A stretch of DNA of 44,780 bases from Catajapyx aquilonaris (lineage: Eukaryota), in assembly GCA_000934665.2 (NCBI GenBank), contig KZ538967.1, forward strand, positions 1 to 44,780. Direction: 5' to 3'. A program made the translations under genes and the position numbers. Shown one piece after another: positions 18,782 to 42,430 of the stretch. The notes below the pieces were generated by a model. It ran no database searches. It saw only the letters and a list, made by a program, of their open reading frames with translations, and was not told where the DNA came from. Position 1 is the stretch's first letter. Every line of letters starts with the position of its first letter.

Positions 18782-20567
18782 GTAAAGGCCCAACTACTTT
18801 GTGCATTGAATCATATCATTAAGGATTGCAGTTTGATAAAGCATGGAGCAAATTGATGGATGGGGGAGCTTACAAAACCTATTTGCAGATCGCTACAGCT
18901 ATTGTAATTGCAACGTATGAATGATTCATGTGATTTCACACGACAGAATAAAGAACATCCTATGCAAATCAGCCTGGACAGGGCAATACGGTCAAGGTCA
19001 GCATAAGCGTGTGATGAAATGAATTCCTGTAAAGTGAATGAATTCCAGCCTAACTGCTAACTCACATGTGATGAGCAAGAAATATCGTTTGAATAAAATA
19101 ATTGTGGGAAAGCGTTTGCCAATCAGCTGAGAAAAGAATTCATTACAACCAAGTTTGGATCTAAGCAATATATTCATTAATTGATTGAAGTTAATTTTTA
19201 CTGCAGCGTGCAGTATACACATACATGGAACTATCATGCAGTGGAGTGGGGGGAAAAACACCTCGGATGTAATTTGAGAATTTGCTGATGAGTCCATGGT
19301 GCATCCATTATGGGTCACCCTGTACTTTAATTTTAATTATTTCTCGTGAATTGATATTTCATAAGCCTCTGCCATCAGATACAGCGAAGCACGGACAGGT
19401 ATGAGCCAGTTTCAGTCCATCTTGGAAGCTCAGTTACCCATTGGCAGCGCACTTGCCCACGCATGAGCTTCGAGTGTGCACAGAAATTGTGAAATTTTAG
19501 CCTACAATCTACAGTACATAAAATTTAAAATTTTATTGATATTAAGTGCAAATGAAGCTTCCTAAAAGTTTTGCAAGACCAGAGAAGTGGAAGACTGATG
19601 TTAACCACTATACAGGTTGACTCTAAAGTAAGGATACATAGATAGTTGGATTGCATTATTGGTTTACAGTAGTTGTGCCAACTAGCAGATTGTTGTCAGT
19701 CAGTAGAGGATTTAGTTGGTATGGTTGGCACTTGGAGTTGGCACAACTGAAAGCCAACAATGCAATACAATTACCTATGTATCCTGACCCTATAACCCTC
19801 GTCCCCATTATTCCAACCACACTTCCTATTTCAACCATGACGATGTTATGGAAATGGTCCCAAAAATAATTTTGCATCTATTCTATATACATATAGCACT
19901 AATGTGAATCATATTTAGAAACATGACTGTGTCACTTGTCTCAGATAGTCCCTAGAGAACCAGCTATAGTCCGTGTTTATGAATATGACCCCAAACAAAT
20001 AGAGTGCCATGGAATTCACAACATAGCCTTCAACAGATCTGCATTAGAAATAAAAACTCAGATTGCATTAAATATTATTCATCTTATTCCAAAAGAACTT
20101 GAAAAAGGTTCTTACAAAAATGCCCTTTTGGCTTGACAACATACTAATATTCTCCCTTTCAAAGCGTAGGGTCACTCATCCAATCATTACAAATGAACAT
20201 TTATAATTACTCTGGAATCAGTCTTAGCATCTTGTACTTCGTGGGTAGTTACCAACATGGTGTCTCTCAAATTTACGGGTCCCATGTTACTGTCGTCGTC
20301 TGCCATGATGAGATGAGCTGCCTCTTCTGCCCTTGCGCCAACCACCTCTTTGCTGCTGCTGTGGACCACTGTCAAACCTTTTCTTCTTAGAGGCGATCTT
20401 TTCAGGTGGGAATTAAGCTGGAGGTAAGATTTGCACGTACTTCCTCTGTCTGTTATGGACTTATGAATACGTTGTATGCCTTCCGTGTCATGCAATGCAA
20501 ACTGCATTTTATGCATCTGCATTATGACTTTCTCACTGACCTGCCAAATTAATTCACGCATCTTGTC
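18782..20567. repeat. segmental duplication block, direct repeat of ~28340-30005
   Basis: Collinear shared sequence, e.g. AAGGATTGCAGTTTGATAAAGCATGGAG (18820 / 28386), AAAACCTATTTGCAGATCGCTACAGCTATTGTAATTG, CAGGTATGAGCCAGTTTCAGT, TGGAAATGGTCCCAAAA. Confidence 0.92.
20287..20567 (-). pseudogene. 5'-truncated remnant of the ZCCHC7 C-terminal segment (copy D)
   Basis: DKMRELIWQVSEKVIMQMHKMQFALH matches DKMHEVIGQVSETVLTLMHKMQFTLH of the paralogues; an 8-bp insertion (CATAAGTCCATAA) shifts the frame and the homologous frame has CAA>TAA. Confidence 0.85.
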
Positions 20568-20832
20568 AAGGAAAAATCATAGATTGTGCATGATTCTCAG
20601 AAACACAATGGGGTGAATTTTCGTACCACTGATAGATATTGCTAAGCAGTGCCAGTGTTGGCAATGATACTGCTAAGTTAGCAGTAACTACTTAGCAGTG
20701 GGATGCACTGAAATAATAAAGAGGGTCATATCACGACCTGTTTGGATTGAATAGTTCTCTTCACTAATAGTCTACTGTATTAAGGGCAGATTAACCGGCA
20801 TGCATTAGTTGAGCTAATGATTCTGATTGTTT

Positions 20833-23576
20833 CAGGCTGGTTCCATTTCAATCCAGACAGAGGGTGCCCAGTCATGGTCTTCGATTTTTTAAAAAATTTA
20901 TATATGTGAAACCCACATCCAATTGAACCCTTATGGAGCAATCAGTTTTACGAGATTAAATTTAGTTATCGAGATATTAATATTTCTTTCAAGGGGTACC
21001 AAAATAACCTTCACGGGAAGGTGCACTTTTTCCATTGCTTTCAATGAGGACAATTCGGGAACTGTTCTGAAAACCAACATGAAATTTTAAACTCATGCTT
21101 TTGGAATAACACGCTGTTACGTAATGCATAAATTTACCTTATTTAATGGTACAGTCACCTGCAAAAAATCTCCAACATTGCATATTTTGGTCAAAATTTG
21201 CATATTTCGCAATTTATTACGGCGTTATGGTAAGCGTGACGGTTATGCCGATTACATTTTGTGATATACTCGGTGACCCCTTAAAGGTTATGCAATAAAA
21301 CCTTTGTTAGCTCCGCGTGTAGTTGAGATATGCGAGGTGAAAATATGGCAACAAGCGAAAACACGCATATTTCAAAAATTATTTTCTCAAAAACCCCATT
21401 TTTTATTTTTCATTTTTATTTTCTATTTTACACGGACAGACAGGTTTTAAAATGAGGTGGTGTCAAAACCCGGTGCATACTTTTTGTAAGTGAGATACAA
21501 TTTTTTTTTTTGATGACAAATTTCGTTATTGTGCTACAATATAGCACACTTCATATAAATATTTTCTCGAAGAAGCCATTTTAAATATTTAATAGTTATT
21601 TTTTGTATAACAAAGTAGCATGGGTTCTATTATAAAATTATATCAAAATTCGGTATGCACAATGCCGTAATTTACTGGTAGAGTCATCTTCAAAAAAAAT
21701 CGCCAAAAGTGCTTGTTTTGCTGCAAATTCACTTAGTACGCAATTTATTATGGAGTTATTATTAAGGCTATACAAATGAAACCAATTATGTACAATGTTG
21801 TTAAAGGGCATGTTGTAAGGACAAATAATTTCATTAATATCTGCATTCAAAGAAGAAGTAGACGTGGTCAAAGTATGGTCATATGAGAAAACATGTCTGA
21901 AAAATACATTTTTTATTCAAAAATGCAATTTTTTATTGATTTTATTTTCATTTGTGTAGATAATGACGCTCTCTTTCAAAAGATATAGTGTGAAAAAAAG
22001 AAACCTTATGACAATTTATACATTTGTCATGAAGTGGGTTTAACCCAGAGCAACATTCAAAAATATATAACTCAAGTATACGCATATGCCCCGGGTTTGT
22101 AATATATTTTTTGAAAGAGAGCGTCATTATCTACACAAATAAAAATAAAACCAATAAAAAATTGCATTTTTGAATAAAAAATGTATTTTTCAGGCATGTT
22201 TTCTCATATGACCAAACTTTGATCAGGTCTATCTCTTCTTTGAATGCAGATATTAATGAAATTATTTGTCCTTACAACATGCCCTTTAACAACATTGTAC
22301 ATAATTGGTTTCATTTGTATAGCCTTAATAATAACTCCATAATAAATTGCGTACTAAGTGAATTTGCAGCAAAACAAGCACTTTTGGCGATTTTTTTTGA
22401 AGATGACTCTACCAGTAAATTACGGCATTGTGCATACCGAATTTTGATATAATTTTATAATAGAACCCATGCTACTTTGTTATACAAAAAATAACTTAAA
22501 TATTTAAAATGGCTTCTTCGAGAAAATATTTATATGAAGTGTGCTATATTGTAGAACAATGACTAAATTTGTCATCTGAAAAAAAAAGTATCTCACTTAC
22601 AAAAAGTATGTACCGGGTTTTGACACCACCTCATTATAAAACCTGTCTGTCCGTGTAAAATGAAAAATAAAAATGAAAAATAAGAAATGGGGTTTTTGAG
22701 AAAATAATTTTTGAAATATGCGTGTTTTCGCTTGTTGCCATATTTTCACCTCGCATATCTCAACTACACGCGGAGCTAGCAAAGGCTTTATTGCATAACC
22801 TTTCAGGGGTCACCGAGTATATCACAAAATGTAATCGGCATAACCGTCACGTTTACCATAACGCCGTAATAAATTGCGAAATATGCGAATTTTGACCAAA
22901 ATATGCAATGTTGGAGATATTTTGCAGGTGACTGTACCATTAAATAAGGCAAATTTATGCATTACGTAACAGCGTGTTATTCCAAAAGCATGAGTTTAAA
23001 ATTTCATGTTGGTTTTCAGTACAGTTCCCGAATACTCATTGAAAGCAATTGAAAAAGTGCACCTTCCCGTGAAGGTTATTTTGGTACCCCTTGAAAGAAA
23101 TATTAATATCTCGATAACTAAATTTAATCTCGTAAAACTGATTGCTCCATAAGGGTTCAATTGGATGTGGGTTTCACACATATATATATATATATACTAG
23201 CAGGATACCCGGCGTTGCTCGGGTTATGAAATACTTTTCCATAGGAGTGACCCATTGATTTGGTAGTAATCTTTGCAATAATTATGGCTATACAATGTCG
23301 GCATACCTGTAACATGGAGCATTGCATGTATACATGAAGTCCAAGCAACACACTAAGGATGTCATATTGTAAGAAAATACACAATGCACCTCCAAAATCC
23401 AGCAAAAGTATGTAATGAAAAATTGAAGGTTGTGCAGTAAATGTAGAATGTAGAAGCTCCAGCATGGTAGCTTACAATCTGACATCCATTGTGTGTTTNA
23501 TATATATATATATATTTAAAAAAATCTAAGACCATGACTGGGCACCCTCCGTCTGGATTGAAATGGAACAAGACTG
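20833..23576. mobile_element. fold-back DNA transposon: ~1.15-kb inverted arms (20833-~21987 / ~22103-23576), ~115-bp spacer, no transposase
   Basis: Ends CAGGCTGGTTCCATTTCAATCCAGAC ... GTCTGGATTGAAATGGAACAAGACTG|TA; arms are near-identical, which is why the ORF track gives the same peptide at 21638-21871(-) and 22219-22452(+). Confidence 0.9.
23198..23515 (-). mobile_element. Helitron-like insertion nested in the right arm of the fold-back element
   Basis: Absent from the left arm; minus-strand 3' end CCCGAGCAACGCCGGG hairpin followed by TATCCTGCTAG|T; sits in a (TA)n tract. Confidence 0.7.
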
Positions 23577-23936
23577 TAGGTTAATTAATGGGTAAATATG
23601 TAAATATGTCTGAGGATAAGGCTTCCTTCGCTCCGGCGAGTAGAGGGGACGTCCCTGGCGGGGTCGTTGAGGTGCAAGGGAGGTGCCATACACGTCGGCG
23701 TGGCCAGGGCGTCCGGAGTAGTGGCTGGTGGCGAGGGGGGGCTTGTTTTTGACGAAGTACAGTATTGCATAGTGTAATATTTACATTTAATATTGAGTGT
23801 CTGTTTTTGAGGTGGGCAGGGGTGGGGGGTGGGACGGGTTGTTTTTAGGTTTATTCTCGTGAGTTTTATTAGTTGATATATGTTGGGTTAGCTTGCGTCT
23901 CCCTTCATCGCTGACTACCCCTCATAGGGAAATGTC

Positions 23937-23963
23937 GTGTTGTTGTTGTTGTTGTTGTTGTTG
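23937..23963 (+). repeat. (TTG)n microsatellite, possibly the tail of a retroelement fragment (~23580-23963)
   Basis: About nine TTG units; homology to the duplicated ZCCHC7 3' flank resumes immediately afterwards (GTCACTGATCTGCAATAG). Confidence 0.7.
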
Positions 23964-24354
23964 TCACTGATCTGCAATAGTCCTAATAGAGTAGACCAGG
24001 CTATTCCTGCCTAGATCCAGACCTTGCTAGTCCATGTTTCTGAGTATGACCTGATATGACCCCAAGCAAATAGAGCACCATGCAATTCACAACATATACC
24101 TGCAACAAATCTGCATTAGAAATATAAACACAGATTGCATTCAACATTATTCATTTTATTCCAAAAGAAAGTGGAAAAGTTCCTTACAAAAAAGCCCTTT
24201 TCACTTGACAACTTATATTCTCGCATTCAAAGCATGGGGTCACTCATTCAGTCATTACAAATGAACATTTATAATTACTCTGAAATCAGTCTTAGGATCT
24301 TGTACTTCTTGGGTAGTCACCAACATGGTGTGTCTCAAATTTAAGGACCCCATG

Positions 24355-25446
24355 TTACTGTGGTGGTCTGCCATGATGAGATGAGCTGCCACCATGAGAT
24401 GAGCCTCTGCCTCCTCTGCCCTTGCGCAAACCATCTCTTTGATGCTGAAGTGGACCACTGTCAAACCTATTCTTCTTAGAGGGGATCTTTTCAGGGGGGA
24501 ATTGAGCTGGAGGTAAGCCTTGCACATACTTCCTCTTTCTGTTATGAAGAAGTTGTATGCCTCTCATGCCATGCAATGTAAACTGCATTTTATGCATCAA
24601 TGTTAGGACTGTCTCGCTCACCTGCCCAATTACTTCATGCATTTTGTCTTTCATTTTCAAGTGCTCAATCCTTTCCACTGCTCCCTGATATTCTTGGATG
24701 TGCAGCTCCCACTGATTCAGGTCCCTGCGAGCAAACAATTCAATGTAATGAAACAGGGCGCTCCTGATGTCTTCCTCGCTCAAGGGTCCCACGGTGAGTG
24801 CTTGAAGGGCCATGAGCAAAGCCTGCACATGCTCCTCTCCACCACTGAGGCCTGCATGGCACATCACCACCAAGTTCAGCTGCCATTCGGTCATCTTGGC
24901 AGTTACCCATTTCTCCTTATGCCTCCTACTGTAATGGGTCTTGAGTGTCTCATACAAATATAGGGCTGACTCTCGCGGATTCTTTACGGAGTCCATGAAC
25001 CAGATGAGCTTGTCATTCAGGACCGCATGGTTTTGCAAATGGATTCGTTCTTCTTTTGGCATTGGAATAGGTGGCATGTTGACATCTCGGAGAAGTACTT
25101 CCGGAAAAGCTGGAATTGCCATCAATGAGGGCAACTGTGGGATCGGACAATAATTTGTTTGCGTTCTGCCACTACCACTTTCTGTCATGGTGCTAGGGCC
25201 TGGAAATCCTGAGCCAGCAGTCTGATCACTGCCTGCTTCTGTCTCCAAATCTTCAATCTCCTCTAACTTTACCAGGGCATCTTTTGGCAGAGCTGCAACC
25301 CCCTGGTTCACACTGGATGCAGTAACTTCACTCGTGCTTGGCATGGCCCTTTGAGCCTCTTCTGCTGCATCCTTCCTGTGGTTTTCCATGATGACCACAG
25401 GTATACATGGTGTAGGCTGCAATTTGGGACATACATGTAGGTGCAT
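24355..25446 (-). CDS. ZCCHC7 C-terminal-domain-only paralogue (copy C); likely start 25389 (MENHRKD, 344 aa) or spliced in at 25416
   Basis: Uninterrupted ORF collinear with 34965-36176: LNDKLIWFMDS...ESALYLYETLKT...WQLNLVVMCHAGLSGGEEHVQALL...MHEVIGQVSETVLTLMHKMQF. Expression not shown. Confidence 0.7.
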   Translation of the reverse strand: MHLHVCPKLQPTPCIPVVIMENHRKDAAEEAQRAMPSTSEVTASSVNQGVAALPKDALVKLEEIEDLETEAGSDQTAGSGFPGPSTMTESGSGRTQTNYCPIPQLPSLMAIPAFPEVLLRDVNMPPIPMPKEERIHLQNHAVLNDKLIWFMDSVKNPRESALYLYETLKTHYSRRHKEKWVTAKMTEWQLNLVVMCHAGLSGGEEHVQALLMALQALTVGPLSEEDIRSALFHYIELFARRDLNQWELHIQEYQGAVERIEHLKMKDKMHEVIGQVSETVLTLMHKMQFTLHGMRGIQLLHNRKRKYVQGLPPAQFPPEKIPSKKNRFDSGPLQHQRDGLRKGRGGRGSSHGGSSSHHGRPPQ

Positions 25447-26027
25447 GTAGGGGTAATAGGTGATATAGGCGAGAGAGCCATCTCTGGGTATTTTCTCGCA
25501 CTAATACGAGCGGCGGCCATATTGTAGAAAAAGAAAATTATTCCCAGTACAGAGTTAAGCCGTGGTTTCCAGCCTTTTACCAACTGCCACTCCCTAAACA
25601 TGTTTCCATAAATGTGCAACCCCCCTTCCTCCCACTCCTCGCTCTCCAGAAAACATACTACACTCGTCTGTACGGTGTCAAAAATTGTTCAATTGACACA
25701 GAAGAGGCACGGAAAAAAATTGATGATTTTGGCACCTAGTTGGTTTTTTTTTCCATTTTCGCCCAACAAAATAATTACTTTTACGGCGAGTGGAAGTGAA
25801 CGAAAAACGGCGTTTGCGAATGTGAATTTGATTAACATGGCGGAAGGAATGCGAGATAATAATCGGACACATTTCTGATGAGGTCGTGTGTCCACAATAA
25901 TGCAATCGTGTAGAGCAGCCCACGGACACTACCCCTATCTTCTGGGCTTATCACCTGCCGAGGGGTTTTGCAGCGGGTGCTCACCTGAGACCGCCACGAG
26001 ACATTTCCCAGAGCATTTATGTGGCCG

Positions 26028-26081
26028 GACCCTACCGGACTAAGGCTGAACTTTAAAGTTCAGCCTTAGTCCGGTAGGGTC
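26028..26081. repeat. perfect 54-bp palindrome, no spacer
   Basis: GACCCTACCGGACTAAGGCTGAACTTT|AAAGTTCAGCCTTAGTCCGGTAGGGTC. Confidence 0.95.
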
Positions 26082-26096
26082 GCCAAATGCAGAACA

Positions 26097-26441
26097 TTTT
26101 TTTTTACGTTACCCCGTGCTAGGGCCATGGGTCCTTATAGGGGGGTGGTATACCACCATTTTCTTCAATTTTCTATTTTTTCTTCTTCACTCCGGTGCAA
26201 GGATGAAAGGACATGGGGAAGAGATAGGGGATTTTTGGGGAGGGAACATGGGTGCAAGGTGCACGTCTGAAAACGGGTCATGTGCTGTTCCCCAGGAGGT
26301 TAGGTTGCCAGACACCTCCTTGGTGCAGGTCAGAGACCCTCCCGACGCAGGTGAAAGGAAAGTTCCCCAGGCGGGGATCGAACCTGGGGCCTTTCACACA
26401 GCAAGCCGTGACGTTACCATCACGGCCACCACACCTCCCCA
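26097..26441 (-). mobile_element. tRNA-derived SINE (family 2)
   Basis: Minus-strand head with A-box-like TGGCCGTGATGG and B-box GGTTCGATCCCC; an A-rich tail appears as the T run at 26097-26105. Confidence 0.6.
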
Positions 26442-28078
26442 ANTCGAACCTTTTGCTGACTTTCCCCGTCAAGGCCTGTTTATGCCCTCGCGAAGTGAGC
26501 CCAGTTCGCGCGACCAGGGTGCTTTGGCAACGATAACGGTGCCCACCAGAGATAATGTCGGAACGAATCGAGCGCATGCGACCGTTTTTTTCCCCAAGGA
26601 GTCTTTTCCGCAAGAAGGCAGCGGATTCGTAACCTCTGCTGTGCCCCTGCTTCTCCTCCTTCCCCCATCTACCCACTCCCTCTGCCTATATTGGTCTGGT
26701 CACCCCGCTGAGAATTTTAAATATGACCAATCAGGGTCCGGGTGGAGCCTCCCCCCTTGCAACTCTCCGTGTTCATCTGGCCACTCCACACTACGTCACA
26801 ACTCCGGAACTCCCTGGGCACTCCATCTGGCCAATCAGAGCCTTCCCCGTAAAACCGACATCCAGCACAACCATGTCCCATAGTAACGGAAATTAATGTA
26901 AAAATTGCAATTTCTTAACATTTTTTGTAATCATTGTGCCAAAATTATAAAATGAGCATTTTTTGCCATGAATGCCATGCATTTCCTCTAAAACACTGTT
27001 AGTCATCCCATTAGACAGTGTATATTTAGATAACTCTGTTCATGGATCATTCTGGGACTGATTAGGGCCAATATTTGGCCCCATTGCGTACTTTCAAGGC
27101 GCACATGCGTTCCTTCAAATGCAATTATTTTCCTTAAATCAAAAAACTCCTCCAGAGATTTTTTTCTATGTCAGGGAAAGGGTCTGATCTACAACATATT
27201 TAAAAATCGGATTTTTAAATTAGGCGGATTTTTTTGTTAAAAAAATTTGAAATTTTGAAAATGGGACAAAATTTTCAAAAAAGTCAAAATACGAATTTTC
27301 AATCTTTCGTGAGATTGGGCTCTCGAATCTCTTCAAAGGGAGGGGTCTACGACGTCTGTAGCTCAATTGGTTCACGAGATATGACCGATTTCGGAAACCC
27401 TACCTTCCGAAAAGGACGTTTTTTTCGGTGGGCCTATCTCCGGGGAGGGGGGGTAAATCTCAAAACCGTGCAAATGGTAATTTTGAAAGACGTAATTAAA
27501 GCGATTCCCCGATTTTCGTCAAAATCTGACAACCCAAGGGTCAGGGGGCTCGGTGAATTGACATGGAATGACCCTAATGCAAAATCAGATATGTCCATTT
27601 TTGGCATTTTGGCGTTGTTAAAAGATGGATATATACAATTGTTTCTGCAATAATAATGGCAACCACGATAGCATACTGCTCATCTAGTTTCCAAGCAAAA
27701 TCGGATAATTCTTAATTCACATATAGCTGATTTTCATGCAAAATCAGATGTATCCATTTTTAACAATGCCCTACCTCCACAATCACCATACATCGAAGTA
27801 AAACAATTGTGTCTACATAATGGCAACCCCTATAGCATACTGCACATGACAACTTCACTCTCACTTTTGCCACCAGCATTGATGAATCACTTATTGGCTC
27901 CTCCTGAAAAGTTGCAAATTGTGGATTTATCTGGATTTGCTGGCAAGCTCCTCAATTACGTATGATCAAATCCATTTCCCTTCTGCCTGGTATATCCTGA
28001 GTAGTTGGCATGACCGCAAGACATCCAAGGGCCTCGGGCAAAGTCGCGATAACTGGTAAGTACTGTACCGGGGGGGGG

Positions 28079-28088
28079 NNNNNNNNNN
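28079..28088. other. assembly gap (10 N) inside a poly-G tract
   Basis: Ns in the sequence; single Ns also at 23499 and 26443. Confidence 0.98.
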
Positions 28089-28339
28089 GGGGGGGACAAG
28101 CGGGCGGCAGAAAGGATTAGGATTAAAACTATACTGATAATGCGACAATATTGTTTCGAAAATAGCATGGTCACATACCACAACAACTCTGCTTGAGTTC
28201 TTTTCCTAGCAACCTTAATTTTTATACGAGGGCGAATCAGAAAGTCATATATTGAAAACTTTTTTTAATTCAGAAGTTTTTGATCAATTTAAGGGGCGAT
28301 AGCCCCTAGTAAGACCGTATCATAGATTTCAACAATGAC

Positions 28340-30005
28340 GTAAAGGCCCAACATTTTGGCCAACAATTTTGTGCATTAATCATTAAAGGATTGCAGTTTG
28401 ATAAAGCATGGAGAAAATTATTGATGGATGGAGGCGCTTGCAAAACCTATTTGCAGATCGCTACAGCTATTGTAATTGAAACATATGAATGATTCATGTG
28501 ATTTCACACGACAGAATAAAGAACATCCTATGCAAATCGGCCTGGACAGGGCAATACAGTCAAGGTCAGCATAAGCGTGTGATGAAATGAATTCCTGTCA
28601 AGTGAATGAACTCCAGCCTAACTCACCTGTGATGAGCAAAAAATAGCGCCAGAATAAAATTGTGGGAAAGAATTTGCTAATCAGTTGTGCAAAGAAGTCA
28701 TTACAACCCAGTTTTATTCTCACCAATTCATAAATTGATTAAAGTGGATTTTTACTACGAAGTGCAGTACACATACATGGAACTAACATGATATGTAGTG
28801 GCGTGAAAAAAAAACACACACACACACCTTGGATGAAATTTGATAATTTGCTCAGATTCCTTGGTGCATCAGTTATGGATCACACCGTACTTTAAATTTA
28901 ATTGTATCTCATGAATTTATATAATTATCATAATTCATAAGCCTCTGCATCAGTCACAGTCAGGCATGAACAGGTATGAGCCAGTTTCAGTTCAACTTGG
29001 AAGCTCAATTACCCATTGGCAGCACTTGTCCACATGATCTTCGAATGTCATAGTAATTTTGAATCTTCAGCCTATAGTCTACAGTCATATCAGTAAAATT
29101 TAAAGGGTGAAATTTTTAATCATAGTAAAGTACAAATGCTTCTTCCTAAATTTTTTGCAATACCTTAGAAGTGCAAGCCAGTGGAACTGGAAGACTCATG
29201 TTAACCACTCTAGACTAACCTTCGCCCCAATTATTCCAATGACATTTACCATTTCAACCATCAAGACGTTCTGGAAATGGTCCCAAAATATAATTTCGCC
29301 TCTATTCTCATAATAGGCTTAGACACAGCACTAATGTGAATCATATTTAGGAACATATGTCACTGGTCTGCAATACGGTAGTCCCAATAGAGTACACCAC
29401 GCTAGTCCTGCCTAGATCCCGACCCTGCTAGTCCATGTTTCTGAATATTACCTGATATGACTCCAAGCAAATAGAGTACCATGCAATTTACAACATAGCC
29501 TGCAACAAATCAGCATTAGAAATAAAAACACAGATTGCATTAAAGATTATTCATCTTATTCCAAAAGAACTTGAAAAAGTTCCTTACAAAAAAGCCCTTT
29601 TGACTTGACAACTAATATTCTCACATTAAAAGCATGGGATCACTCATTCAACCATTACAAATGAACATTTATAATTACTCTGGAATAAGCCTCTCAAATT
29701 TAAGGGTCCCATGTTACTGTGGTGGTCTGCCATGATGAGATGAGCTGCCTCTGTGAGATGAGCCTCTGCCTCCTCTGCACCAACCACCTCTTTGTTGCTG
29801 CAGTGGACCACTGTCTAACCTTTTCTTCTTAGAGGCGATCTTTTCAGGGGGGAATTGAGCTGGAGGTAAGACTTGCACATACTTCCTCTTTCTGTTATGA
29901 ATAAGTTGTATGCCTCTCATGCCATGCAATGTAAACTGCATTTTATGCATCAGTGTTAGGACTGTCTCGCTCACCTGCCCAATTACTTCATGCATTTTGT
30001 CTTTC
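28340..30005. repeat. segmental duplication block, partner of 18782-20567; the 3' UTR portion also recurs at ~23964-24354 and ~34705-34965
   Basis: Shared TTATTCCAAAAGAA..TGAAAAAGTTCCTTACAAAA and CATTACAAATGAACA in all four copies. Confidence 0.92.
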
Positions 30006-31738: not shown

Positions 31739-32208
31739 ATTTCATAAGGAACCCGTATCCAGACACGCCATCTAGAAGCGGTTAATAGATGAGGAATGGG
31801 TGTGCGCGCTCAGACCCATCAGGAGGGATGCGCTAGACAAGCGGACCATTTAGTTGCTATGGCCCGCGTGGAGAGTAAACAATGGTGCAATTTGCAATAA
31901 CCTGGCAACAACAGCTCCGTTGTTTACTATCGGCAGGCTACCTAGCAAGCGGGCTTTAGTTGCTAGGTGGGTCTGTTGTTGCCAGGTTATGCCGAATTGT
32001 GCAATTGTTTACTATCCGCACGCGCCCTAGCAACTAAACGGTCCGCTTGTCAAGCGCATCCCTCCTGATGGGTCTGAGCGCACCTGTTCCTCGTCTATGA
32101 ACCCCCTCTATATGGCATGTCTGGATATGGGTTCCTATGTGAAAAATACTTGTCTTGGTCCCCTCTATTAACCCAACAAGTCTTTACAGAGTTACAGGGA
32201 ACACCATG
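31677..32208. mobile_element. Tc1/mariner-type MITE with long internal inverted repeats (31711-32174, possibly a nested GGG-ended element)
   Basis: TA|CAGGGTGTAGGCTGTAA ... TTACAGGGAACACCATG|TA; internal GCGCTCAGACCCATCAGGAGGGATGCGCT (31806) versus AGCGCATCCCTCCTGATGGGTCTGAGCGC (32053). Confidence 0.75.
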
Positions 32209-32277
32209 TATAGTCAGAATCAAAAATTAATATGCCCTTTCCACACACGCAACACATGATTTCTCCAACTGACATAC

Positions 32278-32836
32278 CTTACTAGTGCTTTCTGTGGTCA
32301 GCTGAACAGGATTATGCACTTCGTCAGTGGCATCAGGTGCTTCTTCCCGTCTCGTAGCCTCCTGATGGGCTCCTTCAAGAATGGATGAATCATCATCAAA
32401 GCATGATGGGCTTTCTTCCTTCAAGGCCAACTTCCAGGTCTCCTCCATAGTAACAGATTCATCTCCCGCTTCTTTCATCTTCTCCTTCACTGCCAGGTCC
32501 TCATCCTCTGCGTCAAGCTCCTTCATCATTGTTATGATACATAGAAAAGTAGAGTATTTGGCATTACACATTTGGATGTGACACTCACACTCACCTTTTC
32601 TACCAAACCTACCTGACTATTGCTTTCACAGGTACGTTGTGAGGGGGTATCCACTTCACCAATTATGTCTGGCATAGTACCCTCTCCCACGCAGTCAACA
32701 ATGATGGTGTCATCACTGACGAGATATGGGGATTCCTGCTTCAATGGCTGCTCCTCTTTGACATCATCATCCTCCAGATCATCATCATCCTCTCCACCCA
32801 CCGCCGTCTTGATAGTCGGAATGAATGACATCCTCC
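32278..32836 (-). other. two related acidic exon-like segments (32836-32613 and ~32528-32278), orphan or pseudo-exons
   Basis: Both translate as acidic linkers sharing LK(Q/E)ESP...DD..I...EV..P.Q.T.ES.S(Q/K); acceptor tttttcaag at 32837, donors CAG|gtaggt and AAG|gtatgt; the second segment lacks a clean AG acceptor. Confidence 0.5.
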
Positions 32837-32880
32837 CTTGAAAAATAAAAAATAAACAGCAGGTCCCTGATAATTAATTA

Positions 32881-33178
32881 ACAATTTGATACCCCATTAT
32901 CAGCCTACCGGTATTTTCTAAGGGGGGATTTCTCCATTTTTTGGGGGGTCTGGAACTCTTCCATTTTTACTACTTTTTCTCATCGGAATGAAGCAGGGAT
33001 AGGGAAGGAAGGAAGCGGCTGTGGCCTATGATTACGGTAACGACCCCGAAATTATCCTGCAAGGACCATGGGAAACCACAGAAAACCATGGTCAGGGTCG
33101 CCGGCCTCCGGGATTCGAACCCAGGACCTCCCGATTAGCAGTCGGACACCCTATCCACTCCACCACTACTGCTTCGGT
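32881..33178 (-). mobile_element. tRNA-derived SINE (family 1) with 15-bp target-site duplication
   Basis: B-box GGTTCGAATCCC on the minus strand; body ...GGCCACAGCCGCTTCCTTCC; CCTGATAATTAATTA on both sides (32866-32880, 33179-33193); second copy at 34421-34601. Confidence 0.85.
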
Positions 33179-33224
33179 CCTGATAATTAATTACTAACAT
33201 AGGAGTGTGTCTAGCTTCAGAATA

Positions 33225-33381
33225 CAGTAAAACCTCATGTAACGCTCTTCAAGGGACCGCCCAAAAGTAGCGTCATAAGTGGGAGAGCATTATATGCAGG
33301 AAAATTTACCTTATGGATATGATCAAGCGATCAGAAGAAAGGGGCGTTAAAGCTGGAAAGCGTTATATGGAGGTTTTACTG
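33225..33381. mobile_element. pogo/Tc1-mariner-type MITE (157 bp)
   Basis: TA|CAGTAAAACCTCATGTAACGCT ... AGCGTTATATGGAGGTTTTACTG|TA. Confidence 0.85.
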
Positions 33382-33383
33382 TA

Positions 33384-34164: not shown

Positions 34165-34420
34165 TAGCCTAGATGAATTTTTCGGCATTTTACATTCAAA
34201 AGGACCACCACGAGTTAAAATGATAAATATTGGAGCATATTGTTTTTCATTCATATCACTCCTACTACAAATTATCATCAAGAAACAAACCTAAAAAAAA
34301 TAAAAAATAAAAAAATAATAAAACCCATCAAAGGGTTAAAAACACTGGTCTGCAGTAGTTCCAGGGTAGACTTTATAATTGATATTAAGGAGGTTGGCCC
34401 AGCATTGCCTTTCAACCTCC

Positions 34421-34601
34421 AGGGATAGGGAAGGAAGGAAGCGGCTGTGGCCTATTATACGGAAGCGACCCCGGAATTATCCTAGAAAGACCATGGAAAA
34501 ACACAGAAAACCACAGTCAGGGCTGCCGGCCCCGGGATTCGAACCCAGGACCTCCCGATTAGCTGTCGGACGCCCTATCCACTATGCCAACCTGCTTCGG
34601 T
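34421..34601 (-). mobile_element. tRNA-derived SINE (family 1), second copy
   Basis: A-box TGGCATAGTGG and B-box GGTTCGAATCCC on the minus strand; collinear with 32996-33178. Confidence 0.85.
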
Positions 34602-34964
34602 TTCCAGGGTAAACTGTGTAATTTCACTTCAGTCCATCGAAAGCTATCCCCTTTGCTGGCTGAGTTAGCCTACGAATGAGTGTCTTTCTTACAATAGATC
34701 CAGATAGTCCATGTTTCTGAATGTGACCCCAAGCAAATAGCGTACCATGCCATTCACAACATAGCCTGCAACAGACTTGCATTACAAATAAAAACACATA
34801 TTACATTCAACATTATTCATCTTATTCCAAAAGAACTTGGAAAAAGTTCCTTACAAAAGTGCACTTTTGACTTGACAAGTAACATTCTCACTTTCAAGGC
34901 ATGGGGGGGATTACTCATTCAATCATTACAAATGAACACTTATAAATACACTGTGTCAGTCTTC

Positions 34965-37900
34965 TTAACTACCTGTATTTCGTGGGTAGTCACCAGAATG
35001 GTGTGTCTCAAATTTTGGGGTCCCATAATATGGTGGTGGTCTGCCACGATAAGATGATCCTCCTCCTCTGCCCCCGCCTCCTTGGAACCTGCCTCCTCTG
35101 CCCCTGCGCCTACCACCTCCTTGGTGCTGCAGTGGACCACTCTCAACTCTTTTCTTGTTAGAAAAGTCGGTGTCAAGAGTAATGGTGATCATTTCCGGTT
35201 GGACTGGAGCTCGTTTTAAGTATCGCATGAAAGTCTTCTTTTTGTTATGAATACGCCGGATGTGCTTCACACCAGATGATTCAAACTGCATTCTATGCAT
35301 CAGTGTTAGGACTGTCTCACCTACTTGCCCAATTACTTCATGCATTATGCCCTTCATTTTCAAGTGCTCTTTCTGTTCCACTGCTACCTGATACTTATGC
35401 ATGAGTGTCTTCCACTTCTTCATGTTCCTGTGAGCGAACAATTCTTCGTAATGAAACAGGGCTTTCTTGATGGCTTCCTCGTTCAAGGGTCCCACATTGA
35501 GAGCTTGCAGGATTGTGAGCAAAGCCTGCACATGTACCTCTCCACCATTGAGGCCTGCATGGCCCATCACTACCAAGTTCAGCTGCCATTCAGTTGTATT
35601 GGCTTCTCTCTTTTTCTCCTGCTTCCCCGGGCACTCGGTCTTGAGAGCATCATACAAATACAGGGCCGACTCTTGCTGCTGCTTTGTGGAGTCCATGAAT
35701 GAGATGAGCTTGCTATTCAGGCTCACATGGTTTCGCAAATGCTTTCGTCCACTTTTTGTCATTGGAAAAAGTGGCATGTTATCTGGAAAAACTGGAACTG
35801 CCATCAGTGAAGGCAACTGTGGGATCATACAATGATTTGTTTGCATTCTGCCACAACCACTTTCTGTCACGGTGCTAGGTCCTGGAACTGACGAGCCAGC
35901 AGTTTGATCACTACCTGCTTCTGCCTCCAAGTCTTCAATCTTCTCCAAATTTTTCAGGGCATCTTTTGGCACAGCTGCAACCCCCTGGTTCGCATCTGAT
36001 GCAGTAGCTTCTGCTTCAGATATCACAGGATTGCTGCCACTAGCTTCCACTGCTAAGGGGGGCAATTCCAAATTATTGCTACCTTCCTGTATTGTAACGG
36101 TGCATGTTCCATTATCACTCGTGCTTGGCCTGGTCATTTGTACCGCTTCTTCCGCATCCTTCCGGTGCTTTTCCATGATGATGGCTCTCAGCCGGAGCAA
36201 CTCTATGGCCTTGTTCACATCTCCTGGGTTTCCTGCAATCTCCAACTTAGATTCAGGTAGATACGAGATAAGTGTCCCAGTCTTGAGCCCCACTGCCTTC
36301 AGATCATCTAGTGAGAGACAAGCATAGGCTTCTGCAGGCAGAATCGCAGGTGAACACTTCTGGACCACAGGTGTATTTTCAGGGAGAGGAATTTCAGAAA
36401 CTGGGATAGTTGTTGGGGCTTCCACCAATGGGGTTGTGGAGCATGAAGGTGCAGGGACTAGGGTTGAAGGGAGAGAGACATCCATTAGTGGGATGGTACA
36501 ACTTGTAGTTGCAATGGGTTGGGGTGCAGGGCATGGAGGTGGGGGTGGTCCTGGAGGGTCCGGAGAGGATGTGACAGTTGCAGTGGGTTGGGGTGCAAGG
36601 CGTGGAGGTGGGGATGGTCCTGGAGGGCCCAGAGAGGGTGGGACAGTTGCAGTGGGTTGGGGTGCAGGACATGGAGGTGGGGATGGTCCTGGAGGGCCCA
36701 GAGAGGATGTGACAGTTGCAGTGGGTTGGGGTGCAGGACGTGAACGTGGGCGTGGTTTGGTACCCGGAGAGGGCATGTCAGCCTCACAGTCAAAGGGGTA
36801 TGTAGCAGGGTATATGGAGGCCCGATTCTTCCCACACTCAAAGCCTAAATGGCCCCTCTTAGCACAATTATAGCAGTAGAATCGGCTTGACGAGATGTAG
36901 GAGGTCTGTGATGACTTCTGAGCAGCTTTACCCTGAAAAGATAATTCATTAATAATTCAGACTGCTTCATTGATATGAACTTTAAGTGGGTATTATACAG
37001 ATTAGCTGAAACAAGCAACTCACTATTATATCTGTGATCACACTACCCTATAAAATTTAAACAAATTTCTGCTTAGCAAGAGATGACCCTCACCATCATC
37101 ACAAATGCAATTCACCTGTTTTATTTTATTCAAAAAGGAATGGCCAAAAACAGTAATTTGAGTTTGAGTATGTAGTCAAAAAGTCCCTGTAATTAGCTTT
37201 GATTATTATTTACTTCAAAAATATTTGAGTAGGTCATTATCAAAACCAGGCTATCTTGGTTTGACAAAAGTGTGTTAATTCCTGGTCACAGGCACCAACT
37301 CAATGCTAAATTCGTATTTTCAATATATGGAATGTTTTCACCTCGGGTCCAACTCTCACTGGGCAAGGTCACTTGGGCCATGAAAATACTGTACTAACTA
37401 AATCTGAATTCCCTGTTTTTTTGAAGTGTTTGACTAGAAGAAGGTAGCCTGGTTTTGATAAACTGACAAACTCATTTATGCCCGTAGTGTACACGTACAT
37501 TAGATATCCCAGTATGACCAAAACACGATTCGAACCGAAAGACTGTATGCGTCTCACATGCAAAGAAATCGAACAGACTTTTTCCGGAAGGCAAACTAAA
37601 AATTTGTACATTTTATTATTTTGAATAAACCTGTAAAGAATAAAGTAGCACATGTATGTATAGTAGGTCATTAAAAACCTCTGAATAGCTCATTTTATGG
37701 TGTCTTCCAATTATCCATGTTTACCAATTATACAGGGCAAACCAGTGCATTAATTTGTACAGATAATTGGTAGCACAGTGTATTAACACTTTGACTTTGA
37801 GCCCTAGCCACCTAGAATCTAGGCGATGAGAACTCGACCGCGCAGTACCAGCCATAACCCGCCATCGATTAGTTTTCTGCTTACTCGTACGCTGAAGATA

Positions 37901-40900
37901 CGAACAAGATATTTTACAAATAATAACAGCTATACTTACCTGTTCAGGGAAAACGTTATGACTGTGTTGGAAACAATTTCCATCCCATAGAAGTACATAA
38001 ATGAATTCCCAAAAAGATCGCTGTATAAACCCAAAATTAGAGTATTTCCGGCCAACTGTTAGGCTGATTTAATTATGAAATACATTAAAATATTCTGAAT
38101 AACAATTTTGAAAAGGGTGCCAAATGAATTTGCCGAAATCGTCGTACTTTTCGAGAAATAAGTGCATTTGGGAGTAATCCGAAGCGACAGGCGAGTCTCA
38201 GAAAAGTAATAATTTGTCTCGGAAAGTACAACGATTTCACCATGAAGTCTTCTGGCATGGTTCTCCAGATTGTTAATCCATATATTTTAACATATTTCAT
38301 AATTAAATAAGCCTAACAGTTGGCTGGTAGTACTTGGATTTTCATATTTTACAGCGATTTCTTTGGAAATTAATTTACGGACTTATAGCGAAGGAAAATT
38401 GTTTCCAATACACACATTGTGTTTTGCATGAACGGGTAAGTATAGCTATTATTACTTGTTATTATTTGTAAAGTGTATTATTTGTAAAATATGTTGCCCT
38501 TACCTTCAGAGTACTTATAAGTTGAACAGGAGGGAAAATCTAGGAAAAAATATAGTGGGTATACCGTACAGCGATCTTTTTGGAAATTAATTTACGGACT
38601 TCTATGCGAGTACAATTGTTTCCAAAACATGCATTGTGTAGAGCATGAATATAAAAGTGTAGCTGTTATTATCTGTCAAATATCTTGTCCTTATTTGCAA
38701 GTGGAATGGAAGCGAAAATAATCTAGGTGATGCAGGTATAGCTGGTACCTGGCAGTCGCGTTCTCATTGCCTAGATTCTAGGCGGTTGGGGCTCTAGGGG
38801 TTAAAGGGCCAGAGATGCATACCAAGTTAATGTTCTGAGACATTGCTATCTCTGGAAAATGCATACGGTATATTAGTAACGGAAAATCGCAGGGGGTTGA
38901 TTCATTAATGAGTCTTAGTTCATTAGGCTGAAACTTTCTGCAATACTGGTAGTAATATTAATGACAATTGTCCTAAACTTATGGCATCATTACTGTATTA
39001 AAGCAATGCCAGTATAAAACAAGGTCGACCAGCATCCCTGTATAACCTGGGGGTGGCAGGCATGCCACAATAACCGAGGTAGATTTCCATGATTTTGATC
39101 CTTGTCAAATTTTTTGGAGACCCATGTTGCATGTATGCCTAGAACCCCTCTATCATTTTCCAAAGCAACGGTAGATTAAATTCCCGAACCCTGTACATTG
39201 GAAGTCCCCCATGTTACCCTATTTCAGACTCCAATAAAAATGCAATGTTGACTTTTCAGTTGTTTTCCTGTAATCCTATCTTTCTGATAATGTTCACTCA
39301 GAAAATACTGCATGTTCTTTATATTTAAAAAGGCCAGGTACACATGTATGGTTGGATTTCACTTAATTTAACTAAAAGTGCTACAAAATGACTTCCATTC
39401 AAGATAAAATTATAATTATTAGATATTTTGCAGAGTTCCTGTGTACCATTTGCCCCACTTGGGAGTAAATGCAACACTGACTGACTATTACCTACGATAA
39501 CGACACGTGTTGGAATTTCCCACATAATTACAACACTTGCTGATAAAAATGTATTCAAAAGTTTTCTGATATTTTTAACATAAAATAAATATCATATTAA
39601 ATAGAGAAGAGCTTCTCCCTAGAACAGTATTTTAATTTTTATATTCCATTTTGTGCAGACTGGTATGTACTTGTAACTTGTAAGTCTCAATTTGGTGTTG
39701 CAATTACCCCATTTACGATCTAGCAATTTTTATAAATGATGTATTTGATACTGCTGAGTTTACGAGACATTAATAATCAGTGTCGAAGATACACAATAGC
39801 CAATAACATTAAAAAGCCATCAGTGACCTCGTACAAGAGGTGGACAGCAGTCAAGGACCACCAGCTGCGATATAAACTTGCGCACCCGTACTCTGGACAA
39901 CAACCTTTGACATTGGAGGGCTTTGGAAATGCCAGAATTGAGTTCCTTGACCCCGAAAACCTAGGAAATGACACCAGAACGACCACCGTAGCCCAACAGA
40001 TACCCTGACAACACGCAATTTTCACCTACGCCAATTTCAAAACTTTGAGTGGAGCCTGTAAAAATTTAACCTGAAACTTTGGAAAGTGGCTCCAACTCTC
40101 ACAATACTCCATAATTATGGTGTCTAGAATGCGAAAAGAAAAAAAAAATAAATCGCTTTTTGACATGAAGTGCATAATTATGTCAAAAATCTGCATTAAG
40201 CCACTGGACTATTGAATCCTAATGTCCTCCTAGGAGGACATTATTCTTTTGTCATTATTTTGTCCATTTTTGAGAAGTACTCGTATAATTACTTTTTTCT
40301 CGTTTCTTATTGGCAAAATGTTCAAAAATTGCAACAGGAACTGACATTATGTTACAAACATCTTCGCGGGTCTCAGGAGGATAATTATTAGGACCTTCTG
40401 CACCTCGAACAAACCGGAGTTTCAATAGAAATTCCTTCTTCCGCCCATCCCGCACCCCCTGTTCAACTCCTCCTTTATCAAATCCGCACTGAATGTTTGA
40501 AGAGAAGGAGACAGTGAATTATCTGAACTGATACAACCAGCACTTTCCTGAACGCGTGGTGTTGTAATCCAGTGCACTGAAATGCATGGTTGTAGAGAAG
40601 CATTTCTTGCCACCCTGCGCATGATTATTCATTTTACCACATACTCACCGTGACATCATGAAATTTCCTCCACAAATCAGGACAGTATGCCTGGATGTGT
40701 CCAGGCATCAGGCACAGGTTACAACGGGGAGTCCTGCGGCACCTTACACATTCCCTCCGGAAAGATTGGGTCGCTGCACCACACTTCAGGCAGATGCTTC
40801 GAGGGCAAGAATCCATGCAGTGCCCCTGCACCCCACACATGAAACAGGTTGGTCTGCGCGCCTTGGTCGTACACTGCCATCGGACATGGCCCAATTCATT

Positions 40901-42430
40901 ACACTTTAAACATCGTTGGCCCCTGAAGTACCGTTGAGCCTCAGGATAGTAGTCCACATTATCCAAAGCCCACTTGCGCCTGTCATTTGGCATGGCAGCA
41001 TACGTAGCTTCCATATCAAAGTCGTCAAATGCTTCGCTGTAAAATCGATCCTGTGCAATAGTGTCCATCCTATCAAGCAATGTACGAGGCTGTTTGGCTG
41101 GCGGCTCACGAATTTGGGAGCCCCTGGCAGCATTGTGGGCACTGGGACGGGTTCCAATTAAATTTGTAGCCAGGTTTGTCTCGATCTGCTCCAGTTCTGA
41201 AGTCGGGTATACCTCATCATCTGAGTCCAATGCCTGGTGAGAGCGCTTCCGCTTCCGTCCTCGCTTGGAAGGTTTCTTTTTCTTGGGAGTTGCTTGGGCA
41301 ACCTCAGAACTTTGAGCGTCAACTTCCTGTGTTGTTGGCTGTACTATTCCTGGTGGGTCTGTGTTGTCTGGGTCATTGCAGGTACTGGAAGGTGTGATAT
41401 AAGCAGGTGGACTCACTGGTGGACCAGGTTCAGGATGAGATGGACTAACAGAAGGACTGGAGGGTATGTACACAGGAGAGGGAATCTTGAAAGGATTCCG
41501 CATACGTCCTCGCTTGGATGGTGTCTTTTTCTTGGGAGTTGCTTGGGCAACTTCAGAACTTTGGGTGTCAACTTCTTGTGTTGTTGGCTGTACTATTTCT
41601 GGTGGGTCTCTGTTGTCTGGGTCATTGCAGGTACTGGAAGGTGTGATATATGCAGGTGGACTCACTGGGGGACCAGGTTCAGGATGAGATGGACTAACAG
41701 AAGGACTGGAGGGTACGTACACAGGAGAGGGAATCTTGAACTCACTTTCTGGAGATGGATTATTCTCCTCTTTAAGATGAACAGGTGGATTGGGTTTGGG
41801 TTCACTGCCTGATCCTTCGTGGTCACTACCCTCATCTCCTGAGGACTCAACATTTATCATTGGTGGTGATCGTTTCTTAGGTGTTGGAAGTAATACAACT
41901 GAGATATCTGAGTCACTGTCACACACTATGACATCAGAGTCTGGCACTTCTATAGGATCTCCACACTTCGCCTCGTAGCCACCATGGTCCTCACGAACTT
42001 TCTGATGGCTCACTTTTTCACGGCCACGTTTGGCCTTCCTCTTTTTCTTCTTGCCATCTGCAGATTTTCTGGGAATTTTCAGTCCCTTGTGAGGTTTTCC
42101 ATGGCAGCTACCTTGGGGACGAGCTTTGCATATCTCCTCTTCCCTCTGCTGCACCTGCACTCCGTGTTGAAGAGAGTCACATTCTTGGTGGCTGTCTTGA
42201 TTGGAAGGACAATGTTGGTTGACACCTTGACTGAGGGTGCCCTCCTGCGTGCTCTCAGAATCAACATCCTGAAAGTCGTCAAGACCATAGTGGAGTTGGC
42301 TATACAACATGACTTCTACTTCTTCCATATCGCTATCATCCATTTCTCCTTCTTCCTTATCGACCATGGGCTCTACTTGGTGCCCCATTGGTCTTGGGCT
42401 GCTTCGTGATTGGACTGCAGATGCCATCAT
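34965..42430 (-). CDS. ZCCHC7: zinc finger CCHC domain-containing protein 7 (Air1/Air2 orthologue, TRAMP complex), up to ~1249 aa; coding exons 42430-40649 and 36932-34965
   Basis: N-terminal EVEVMLYSQLHY (recalled vertebrate EVEFQLYSQIHY); knuckles CLKCNELGHVRWQC, CFMCGVQGHCMDSC, degenerate CLKC, CNLCLMPGHIQAYC, then LWRKF (IWRxY linker motif). Phase-0 donor ACG|gtgagt (40649) joins phase-0 acceptor ttttcag|GGT (36932), which supplies knuckle 5, CYNCAKRGHLGFEC, 30 aa after knuckle 4 and in frame with ORF 34965-36776. Which Met is the start is uncertain. Confidence 0.88.
36507..36738 (-). repeat. 69-bp coding tandem repeat (~3.4 x PAPQPTATVTSSLGPPGPSPPPC)
   Basis: GGGTTGGGGTGCA recurs at 36516, 36585, 36654 and 36723. 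Confidence 0.92.
37787..38800. mobile_element. piggyBac-like (TTAA) fold-back MITE in the ZCCHC7 intron
   Basis: TTAA on both sides; ~250-300-bp diverged inverted arms (CCTAGAATCTAGGCGATGAGAAC / GTTCTCATTGCCTAGATTCTAGG); part of the right arm is internally duplicated. Confidence 0.75.
41243..41740 (-). repeat. 249-bp (83-aa) in-frame tandem duplication inside ZCCHC7 exon
   Basis: FKIPSPVY(V/I)PSSPSVSPSHPEPGPPVSPPAYITPSSTCNDPDN...ATPKKK(T/K)PSKRGR occurs twice, starting at 41740 and 41491. Confidence 0.95.

Follow-up and report, generated by a model that had tools for sequence, protein, structure and literature searches.

Air1/Air2 and ZCCHC7/dZcchc7, the RNA-binding subunits of TRAMP, have five CCHC zinc knuckles and a tryptophan-containing linker after knuckle 4. 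In this linker, which leads from knuckle 4 to knuckle 5 and is bound by Trf4, an IWRxY motif is defined in PMC3384339, and a schematic in a preprint depicts ZCCHC7/dZcchc7 as zinc fingers plus a Pro-rich domain (bioRxiv 10.64898/2025.12.16.694471). Here we describe, in a 44,780-nucleotide stretch of DNA from Catajapyx aquilonaris (GenBank assembly GCA_000934665.2, contig KZ538967.1, positions 1 to 44,780; hereafter the window), an Air2/ZCCHC7-type gene, the parent, that likewise has five knuckles, a tryptophan-containing linker after knuckle 4 and a Pro-rich region after the knuckles, together with three partial copies of its last exon, B, C and D, lying downstream on the same (minus) strand. 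We propose, with a probability of about 0.55, that B is a functional chimeric young gene. The proposal draws on reading frames that have stayed open beyond neutral expectation, on coding gaps that are all in frame, on codon classes under different selection and on a public sequencing run with RNA-like coverage in which part of B is found letter for letter.

Compared to Air/ZCCHC7 proteins, the copies are devoid of knuckles, linker, N-terminus and Pro-rich repeats, and the helical C-terminal region that they do contain is not a described part of these proteins in the portions of the literature covered and has no match in Pfam, the PDB or the protein libraries. The copies are similar to retrocopies and processed pseudogenes in being intron-less copies of part of a coding sequence. 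Like young chimeric genes, among which jingwei-type cases are counted, B is a DNA-level partial duplicate that would have acquired new 5' exons unrelated to the parent (provided that exon X, described below, is joined to it), and it combines fast evolution and a maintained frame with decayed sister copies alongside. A Drosophila X-linked testis gene is reported as one example of a young chimeric gene formed by partial duplication (PMC1463047). Unlike such genes, the copies start in the middle of an exon, were doubled in frame, and were recopied and recombined within one 25-kb array. The process itself, comprising partial tandem duplication, exon recruitment and fast evolution, is already known. 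An earlier note on this DNA, made from the sequence alone, had supposed the family to be undescribed; full-text literature searches found no ZCCHC7-derived knuckle-less paralogues, in keeping with that claim, and the articles retrieved that pair ZCCHC7 with tandem duplication are, by their titles, clinical or cancer-genomics studies, mostly of leukaemia.

The parent gene and its knuckle-less copies

The parent is a two-exon gene on the minus strand, its exons being separated by a 3.7-kb intron. A stop-to-stop open reading frame (ORF) scan placed coding exon 1 at 42430–40649, ending at 40649 in a phase-0 donor (ACG/GTGAGT; slashes mark exon boundaries), and the last coding exon at 36932–34965, with an acceptor (ttttcag/GG) at 36932. 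Exon 1 encodes an acidic, Ser-rich N-terminal region, CCHC knuckles 1–4 and a CPDLWRKFH linker. The last exon encodes, in order, knuckle 5, Pro-rich repeats (3.5 copies of a 69-bp unit at 36750–36507), a conserved acidic stretch, a helical core and an RGG-rich tail before the stop; the acidic stretch, helix-rich core and RGG tail that follow the Pro-rich repeats amount to ∼400 residues. The parent translations contain five knuckle-type motifs (CX2CX4HX4C), of which exon 1 contributes four and the last exon the fifth. When the knuckle region was compared with solved structures by phmmer, the top match was yeast Air2 (2lli, E 3.7e-9, query residues 82–147), in an alignment spanning knuckles 2–4 and the CP..W+K linker. 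The parental CPDLWRKFH aligns with 'CPHKWKKV' of Air2, and a second, weak stretch aligns with 'CPSIWRAY'; relative to an IWRxY-type linker, the parent retains W and R/K, with I and Y replaced by L and F. Pfam scores for the parent lie below the curated cutoffs, both for zf-CCHC (20.0 bits in the last exon and 11.4 bits, cutoff 20.8) and for AIR2-like_ZnK4 (10.6 bits, cutoff 27). We refer to the parent as Air2/ZCCHC7-type, a name based on the 2lli match and the architecture.

Within parent exon 1, a 249-bp unit (94% matches, positions 41247–41740) occurs twice in frame and encodes a Ser/Pro-rich segment; contigs of the public runs introduced below, both X5 and DNA, are interrupted at this repeat. 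The tail of the parent protein (34968–35030) reads ...RGG...YRGRPPPYYGTPKFE..., which may resemble an RGG region with a PY-type nuclear import signal behind it. The stop common to B2, C and D falls just ahead of the PYY, and B2 and C end in ...HHGRPPQ (29717 and 24358, respectively).

The earlier note had reported that the tail of the parental coding sequence (∼1.2 kb) and its 3' flank recur on the same strand as B, C and D, and self-blastn searches recovered the same array with identities of 72–88% (E-values of the array matches, 1e-39 to 0). The duplicated parental segment, unit A (36181–34696, minus strand), starts just ahead of 'MEKHRKD' and ends ∼270 nt beyond the stop; it begins ∼750 nt into the last exon, 3' of knuckle 5 and the Pro-rich repeats. 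It is matched on the minus strand by unit B1 (31712–30701, 78% identical to the parent), unit B2 (30702–29358, 76%), copy C (25441–23962, 77%) and copy D (20567–19793, 72%). Among the copies, identities are 85% for B1–B2, 88% for B1–C, 86% for B2–C and 83% for C–D.

As the note had also stated, B holds two units in one open frame (31741–29714, 675 codons by ORF scan), C holds one (25500–24355, 381 codons) and D has decayed. In B, a large exon may be delimited at 31687–29714 (minus strand), with an acceptor-like site (aaattacag/CCT) at 31687 and an ATG at 31660, where the product begins MEKHRKD; unit B1 occupies 31660–30701 and has lost its RG tail, and unit B2 (30700–29714) is fused to it in frame. 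C carries the same acceptor-like site as B (aaattgcag/CCT, at 25416), and from there to its stop (25416–24355, minus strand) it comprises an ATG at 25389, opening MENHRKD, and 344 codons. D is dead: this pseudogene remnant (20567–19793, minus strand) consists of the last ∼270 nt of the coding part and the 3' flank, is cut at its 5' end at 20567 and, relative to B2, has an 8-nt insertion and a 15-nt deletion that leave it frameshifted. Homology continues into the 3' flanks on the same strand. The first ∼350 nt of the B flank (29713–28360) are common to A, C and D and the remainder to D only; the C flank (24354–23962) is homologous to those of A, B2 and D and terminates in a (CAA)n run; the far flank of D (19593–18790) is 80% identical to that of B (29177–28360). 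The unit alignment contains neither a CX2CX4HX4C motif nor the linker in B or C, in agreement with the earlier description of both as knuckle-less and linker-less. Judged on sequence, B and C are descendants of an Air1/Air2/ZCCHC7 gene that stand outside the family by its defining features.

Probable transcription and exon structure of gene B

The public runs matched to the window consist of X1–X4, which are DNA from one sample, and X5, which comes from another study and another sample and is of unrecorded type; none is recorded as RNA. On the parent, X5 contigs cover 34904–36592, 36711–36931 (with 100 further letters that do not match there), 40733–41391 and 41686–42436, and the depth in bins of the 3.7-kb intron is 0 to 1.2. 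We treated X5 as RNA because its cover is limited to exons and because two of its contigs stop at splice sites, a provisional reading. An X5 contig of 851 nt matches 30444–29594 with zero differing letters and zero gaps, corresponding to the last two-thirds of B2 and the 120 nt that follow its stop; since B2 and C differ by ∼5% there, this contig is specific to B2. Cover over B1 is lower.

A second X5 contig, of 417 nt, matches 32835–32612, and its 41 and 152 end letters do not continue into the flanking DNA. It ends within 1 nt of a canonical acceptor (32836) and donor (32613), which delimit a 224-nt exon on the minus strand, exon X (32836–32613; acceptor tttttcaag/GG, donor CAG/gtaggt), with an ATG at 32831 and a coding capacity of 73 acidic residues ending in phase 0. 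Exon X is unlike parent exon 1 (E 0.9), and the coding sequence of gene B probably begins with it. A candidate exon Y of 243 nt (32520–32278, minus strand; acceptor gaag/GAG, donor AAG/gtatgt) has phase 0 at both ends and is likewise acidic; it is weakly similar to exon X (41% over 49 amino acids, E 0.001). Within the window, the X and Y peptides match nothing besides each other. The X5 depth in bin 32296–32959 is 2.45, about twice the contribution of exon X itself, which gives indirect support for Y, and a depth of only 0.28 in bin 31632–32295 fits a lack of cover over the 590 nt that separate Y from B. Joined together, X, Y and B form an 811-codon frame without a stop. It is most likely that B is transcribed as a three-exon chimeric gene, with X and Y spliced to B1–B2 and an 811-residue knuckle-less protein as its product.

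The view of B as a bare stand-alone domain, put forward in the earlier note, is probably to be replaced by that of a chimeric gene of three exons whose N-terminus is new and acidic. The note had also looked to transcripts of B and C as a check on its proposal: the exact B2 contig in the RNA-like X5 run speaks for B, and for C there was no positive sign of expression, X5 having no cover over C (bins 24328–25655), an absence that says nothing on C expression. The assembled sequence upstream of C or D holds no X- or Y-like exons. An inverted repeat of ∼450 nt (31760–32212 against 32123–31673, 78%) occupies part of the putative intron that would separate Y from the B exon. X1–X3 contigs contain short-sided joints (20–30 letters per side, e.g. 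26442 to 31675).

Alternatively, B and C could be alternative last exons of the parent itself, yielding proteins with knuckles 1–4 and the linker but with a swapped C-terminal cassette in place of knuckle 5 and the Pro-rich repeats. Both lie downstream of the parent on the same strand and both keep ..aaatt(a/g)cag/CCT 27 nt before the ATG; moreover, exon 1, with its phase-0 donor, gives an open frame when joined to either. However, the AG is inherited from parental coding sequence and so needs no selection to be present, and its pyrimidine tract is mediocre. Exon X, situated between the parent and B, has its own ATG, and a splice from exon 1 into it would shift the frame and run into a stop 32 codons later. 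No exon 1–B or exon 1–C joint occurs among the joints listed, which counts only weakly against this explanation. We regard it as distinctly unlikely and retain a separate, chimeric gene B as the preferred structure.

Frame maintenance and selection in the copies

The open frames of B and C were compared with neutral expectation by simulation (ancestor proxy, HKY with kappa 2.2, fitted copy branches, 299 aligned codons). B1, B2 and C were jointly stop-free in 8 of 20,000 runs; taken singly, the neutral stop-free rate was 0.080 for B1, 0.032 for B2 and 0.030 for C. All 20 pairwise gap events in the coding parts are multiples of three (7/7 between copies and 13/13 against the parent), compared with 3 of 27 in the non-coding flanks. 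Pairwise events are not independent of each other; at least five distinct in-frame events (105, 6, 6, 6 and 3 nt) fall on copy-only lineages. Gaps are also rarer per mismatch in coding sequence (0.014–0.026) than in the flanks (0.07–0.09). D provides an internal control, having acquired an 8-nt frameshift within 270 nt. These data show statistically that the frames of B1, B2 and C have been kept open by selection, and the earlier remark that B and C remain open despite many changes and indels is given weight by the 8 in 20,000 neutral runs and the 20 of 20 in-frame coding gaps.

Codon models indicated that selection is uneven along the units. A two-class model (M3) was favored over a single ratio of non-synonymous to synonymous substitution rates (dN/dS, or omega; M0), with twice the log-likelihood difference (2dlnL) at 28.7 (p 6e-7) and with 57% of codons at omega 0.38 and 43% at 2.6, as obtained with our own code on four recombining paralogues, for which unmodelled rate variation could inflate the heterogeneity. 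M2a was better than M1a (p 3e-4), M3 was better than M0 with the copies only (p 8e-4), and 2dlnL did not exceed 7.1 in any of 44 simulations with one omega throughout. In three conserved blocks (92 codons, picked after viewing the alignment), parent–copy synonymous divergence (dS) is 0.26–0.28, as elsewhere, and omega is 0.23–0.30; between copies, the blocks have a dS of 0.09–0.15 and an omega of 0.26–0.47, compared with an omega of 0.73–1.18 for the remaining codons. The conserved blocks are an acidic peptide (NQGVAAVPKD...EDLE.E.GSDQTAGS..PGPS) and two helical blocks (WQLNLVVM.HAGL.GGE.HVQALL and EHLKMK..MHEVIGQV.ETVLTLMH.MQF), and a shortened RG-rich tail is retained in B2 and C. In our reading, the copies consist of a few constrained blocks within fast-evolving sequence, which changes at the neutral rate or faster, and are not a neutral relic. 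Selection is best supported for B1 and B2; for C alone, the support is weaker.

Several results weigh against a functional gene B. Pairwise dN/dS by the NG86 method is 0.62–0.93 among B1, B2, C and the parent unit, and maximum-likelihood omega is 1.14 with the four units taken together and 1.08 with the copies only, neither value differing significantly from 1 (our own GY94-type likelihood code, two partitions to allow for recombination in C, four units, no outgroup). By itself, a mean omega of ∼1 is the pattern shown by pseudogenes. Similarity in the 3' flanks equals or exceeds that in the coding parts (parent–copies, 0.86 versus 0.80). The choice of the conserved blocks after inspection of the alignment and the possible inflation of the site-model tests count on the same side, as do the reliance on X5, a single run of unrecorded type, and the finding of no X–Y, Y–B or B1–B2 junction among the joints listed for it. 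Neither AATAAA nor ATTAAA occurs near the 3' ends of A, B or D. Pfam gave nothing above its cutoffs for the units or for exons X and Y, relatives of the domain were found in no library searched, which precludes a cross-species test of constraint, and AlphaFold2 run on C with the four-paralogue alignment returned a mean pLDDT (predicted local distance difference test score) of 35, with no confident fold.

Taken to their conclusion, such observations would make B and C dead or dying partial duplicates that have stayed open through youth and mutual exchange, the X5 cover of B being incidental or due to read-through. A mean omega of ∼1, a flank identity at or above the coding identity, the lack of a homologue, of a fold and of a canonical poly(A) signal at B, the decay of D, which proves that members of the family do decay, and the origin of C as a recombination product (see below) are all in line with this explanation. 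Yet it has to accommodate three units jointly stop-free in so few neutral runs, coding gaps that are all in frame and 3–6 times rarer per mismatch than those of the flanks, omega heterogeneity with a class at 0.38, and an upstream spliced exon with an ATG in frame with B. For C alone this counter-case is weaker, its stop-free probability of 0.03 including shared branches. We consider death of both copies unlikely and continue to prefer a working gene B. The earlier note had taken a dN/dS near 1 as telling against function; the mean is indeed ∼1, but the conserved blocks, at ∼0.25–0.4, stand beside fast-evolving sites.

Within a single alignment, the 3' flank after the stop (34700–34960 and its equivalents in B2, C and D) has a parent–copies identity of 0.86 and the coding tail one of 0.67–0.78, and the dead copy D likewise has a flank more alike than its coding tail. 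This similarity may reflect either an AT-rich flank that mutates more slowly or a conserved element in the 3' untranslated region.

The searches for relatives of the domain took several forms. A word-indexed search with C returned 2914 candidates, none with E <= 0.001 (lengths of 209–667 only), and phmmer with the parent last exon against 1.84 billion representatives gave 2 hits, to the knuckle or the RG-rich stretch and none to the domain. The protein libraries are perhaps poor in animal sequences, and absence of the domain from related animals is not implied. A profile search of the PDB with the domain gave nothing below E 0.7. The top ESM Atlas cluster (0.95, 145 shared features) is fungal and was taken as chance. 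Helices are predicted by AlphaFold2 for C residues 112–290, to be read as secondary-structure prediction only.

Origin of the array and a possible role for gene B

The 5' junction alignment places the start of the copies in the parent last exon near 'IIMEKHRKD', with an ATG at the very start. B1 and C share a 105-nt in-frame deletion as well as a 47-nt upstream stretch absent from the parent, and B2, C and D share a TAA at a point from which the parent continues for 21 further codons; this last coding stretch of the parent remains alignable in the 3' flanks of B2, C and D. B1 no longer has its tail and continues in frame into B2, whose start corresponds to 'GSNPVISEAE' of the parent. In sliding windows, B1–B2 identity is steady at 0.86–0.89, and C is a mosaic, nearest to B1 in its 5' part (0.89–0.95) and to B2 in its 3' part (0.92–0.98). 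The best single breakpoint lies after aligned codon 140 of 299, placing the switch near 24.9 kb, and C differs from B1 and B2 at 41 and 86 nucleotides, respectively, to the left of it and at 71 and 23 to the right. We conclude that C is a B1/B2 recombinant, and the doubling that gave B1 and B2 therefore predates C. By sliding identity, D is closest to B2.

Homology extends ∼270–390 nt past the stop in all copies and ∼1.3 kb between B and D. Since it runs past the stop and no A-tract is present, the copies are segmental duplicates and not retrocopies; a retrocopy or processed-pseudogene origin was rejected on the homology of the flanks, the mid-exon start and the lack of an A-tract at the unit ends. 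The history, which we count as shown, begins with a DNA-level partial duplication of the 3' ∼1.5 kb of the parent last exon and its flank. The founder copy started within this exon, 3' of knuckle 5 and of the Pro-rich repeats, and gained an earlier stop; it then doubled internally and fused in frame to give B1–B2. Subsequently, the B-type block was recopied, one copy collapsing through B1 x B2 recombination or gene conversion to give C and another being truncated to give D. On balance we favor the view that the array is a lineage-specific gene-birth locus.

Several repeats accompany the array. Between D and C, a large near-perfect palindrome (20896–23187) is centred near 22045, with arms at 20896–21048/23035–23187 (98%), 21053–21507/22579–23033 (97%) and 21594–21987/22103–22496 (98%); it sits exactly at the 5' cut-off of D and may represent a foldback-type element or else an artefact of assembly. 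Short repeats at 32994–33178 and 34420–34601, 88% alike, flank the interval between A and exon X, and from their translations we presume them to be tRNA-derived or like short interspersed nuclear elements. Summed contig depth in the DNA runs is 40,000–96,000 in these short-repeat bins and in 25656–26983, upstream of C, versus ∼30 in unique sequence, so these are very high-copy elements. High-copy elements around the copies may have mediated the rearrangements.

Such repeats also raise the question of whether the array is an assembly artefact made of collapsed or expanded repeats or of mis-scaffolded pieces. A scaffold gap of 10 Ns (28079–28088) separates C from B, and their adjacency therefore depends on scaffolding; single Ns occur at 23499 and 26443, and no listed contig covers the whole stretch. 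However, the copies differ by 12–28% and have distinct indels, and are therefore separate loci and not haplotype or assembly duplicates. The X1–X3 DNA contigs give depth in all 30 bins, with values of 17–59 over A, B and C, similar to the 27–40 of parent exon 1, this depth not being a measure of copy number. In addition, B2 is present exactly in a run of a second study, and B1 and B2 are contiguous without an N. An artefact is thus highly improbable, and we treat the array as genuine in what follows.

Elsewhere in the window, a plus-strand frame of 744 codons (5774–8008) consists of 'QYGAPQRQQAPSS'-type repeats and matches Pfam Mucin-like (E 7e-32) and DUF4794 (E 6e-18), which are arthropod families and would accord with an arthropod source of this DNA. 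On the minus strand, 12508–14206 contains exon-like frames of a sodium:solute symporter (Pfam SSF on 13712–14206, E 2.4e-7); the adjacent frame (12508–13215) has no Pfam hit and presumably resembles the C-terminal part of a choline-transporter-type protein.

As to what B might do, mutations of yeast Air2p in linker 4 (IWRxY) and in knuckle 5 strongly impair the co-purification of Trf4p and Mtr4p, and truncations lacking the N-terminus (the first ∼57 residues) fail to bring down Mtr4p (PMC3384339). Since B is missing the parts that Air2 needs to hold Trf4, namely knuckle 4, an IWRxY-type linker and knuckle 5, as well as the parent N-terminus, its product would not join the polymerase module. 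It would bind whatever the C-terminal blocks of the parent bind, without bringing a polymerase or helicase, and would thereby compete with, or diversify, that interaction. By this analogy B may act as a competitor or an alternative adaptor for the ligand of the parent C-terminus, a role that we put forward tentatively and with more doubt than confidence.

A more specific version holds that the copies form a fast-diversifying, knuckle-less offshoot of the TRAMP scaffold that acts as decoys or alternative adaptors in genetic conflict. For example, they might titrate or redirect a factor that targets the transcripts of transposons or viruses for nuclear RNA decay, and the codon class at an omega of ∼2.6 would be the footprint of that conflict. 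According to a preprint (bioRxiv 10.64898/2025.12.16.694471), Drosophila dZcchc7 is among the strongest interactors of the Piwi cofactors TEsup-1/2, and TEsup-1/2 engage exosome-adaptor scaffolds, dZcchc7 being one, through a proline-recognition domain. The Pro-rich repeats of the parent are not part of the copies. We think a role in conflict very unlikely.

Should B prove not to be functional, the locus would be a documented case of a mean dN/dS near 1 that misleads in either direction. If B is a working gene, then within 25 kb a piece of a conserved RNA-surveillance scaffold has been separated from its catalytic partners and doubled, has received a new N-terminus and has gone on to evolve fast, with the recombinant C and the dead D as adjacent controls. 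For TRAMP biology, a working B would mark the C-terminal blocks of the parent as a functional docking module.

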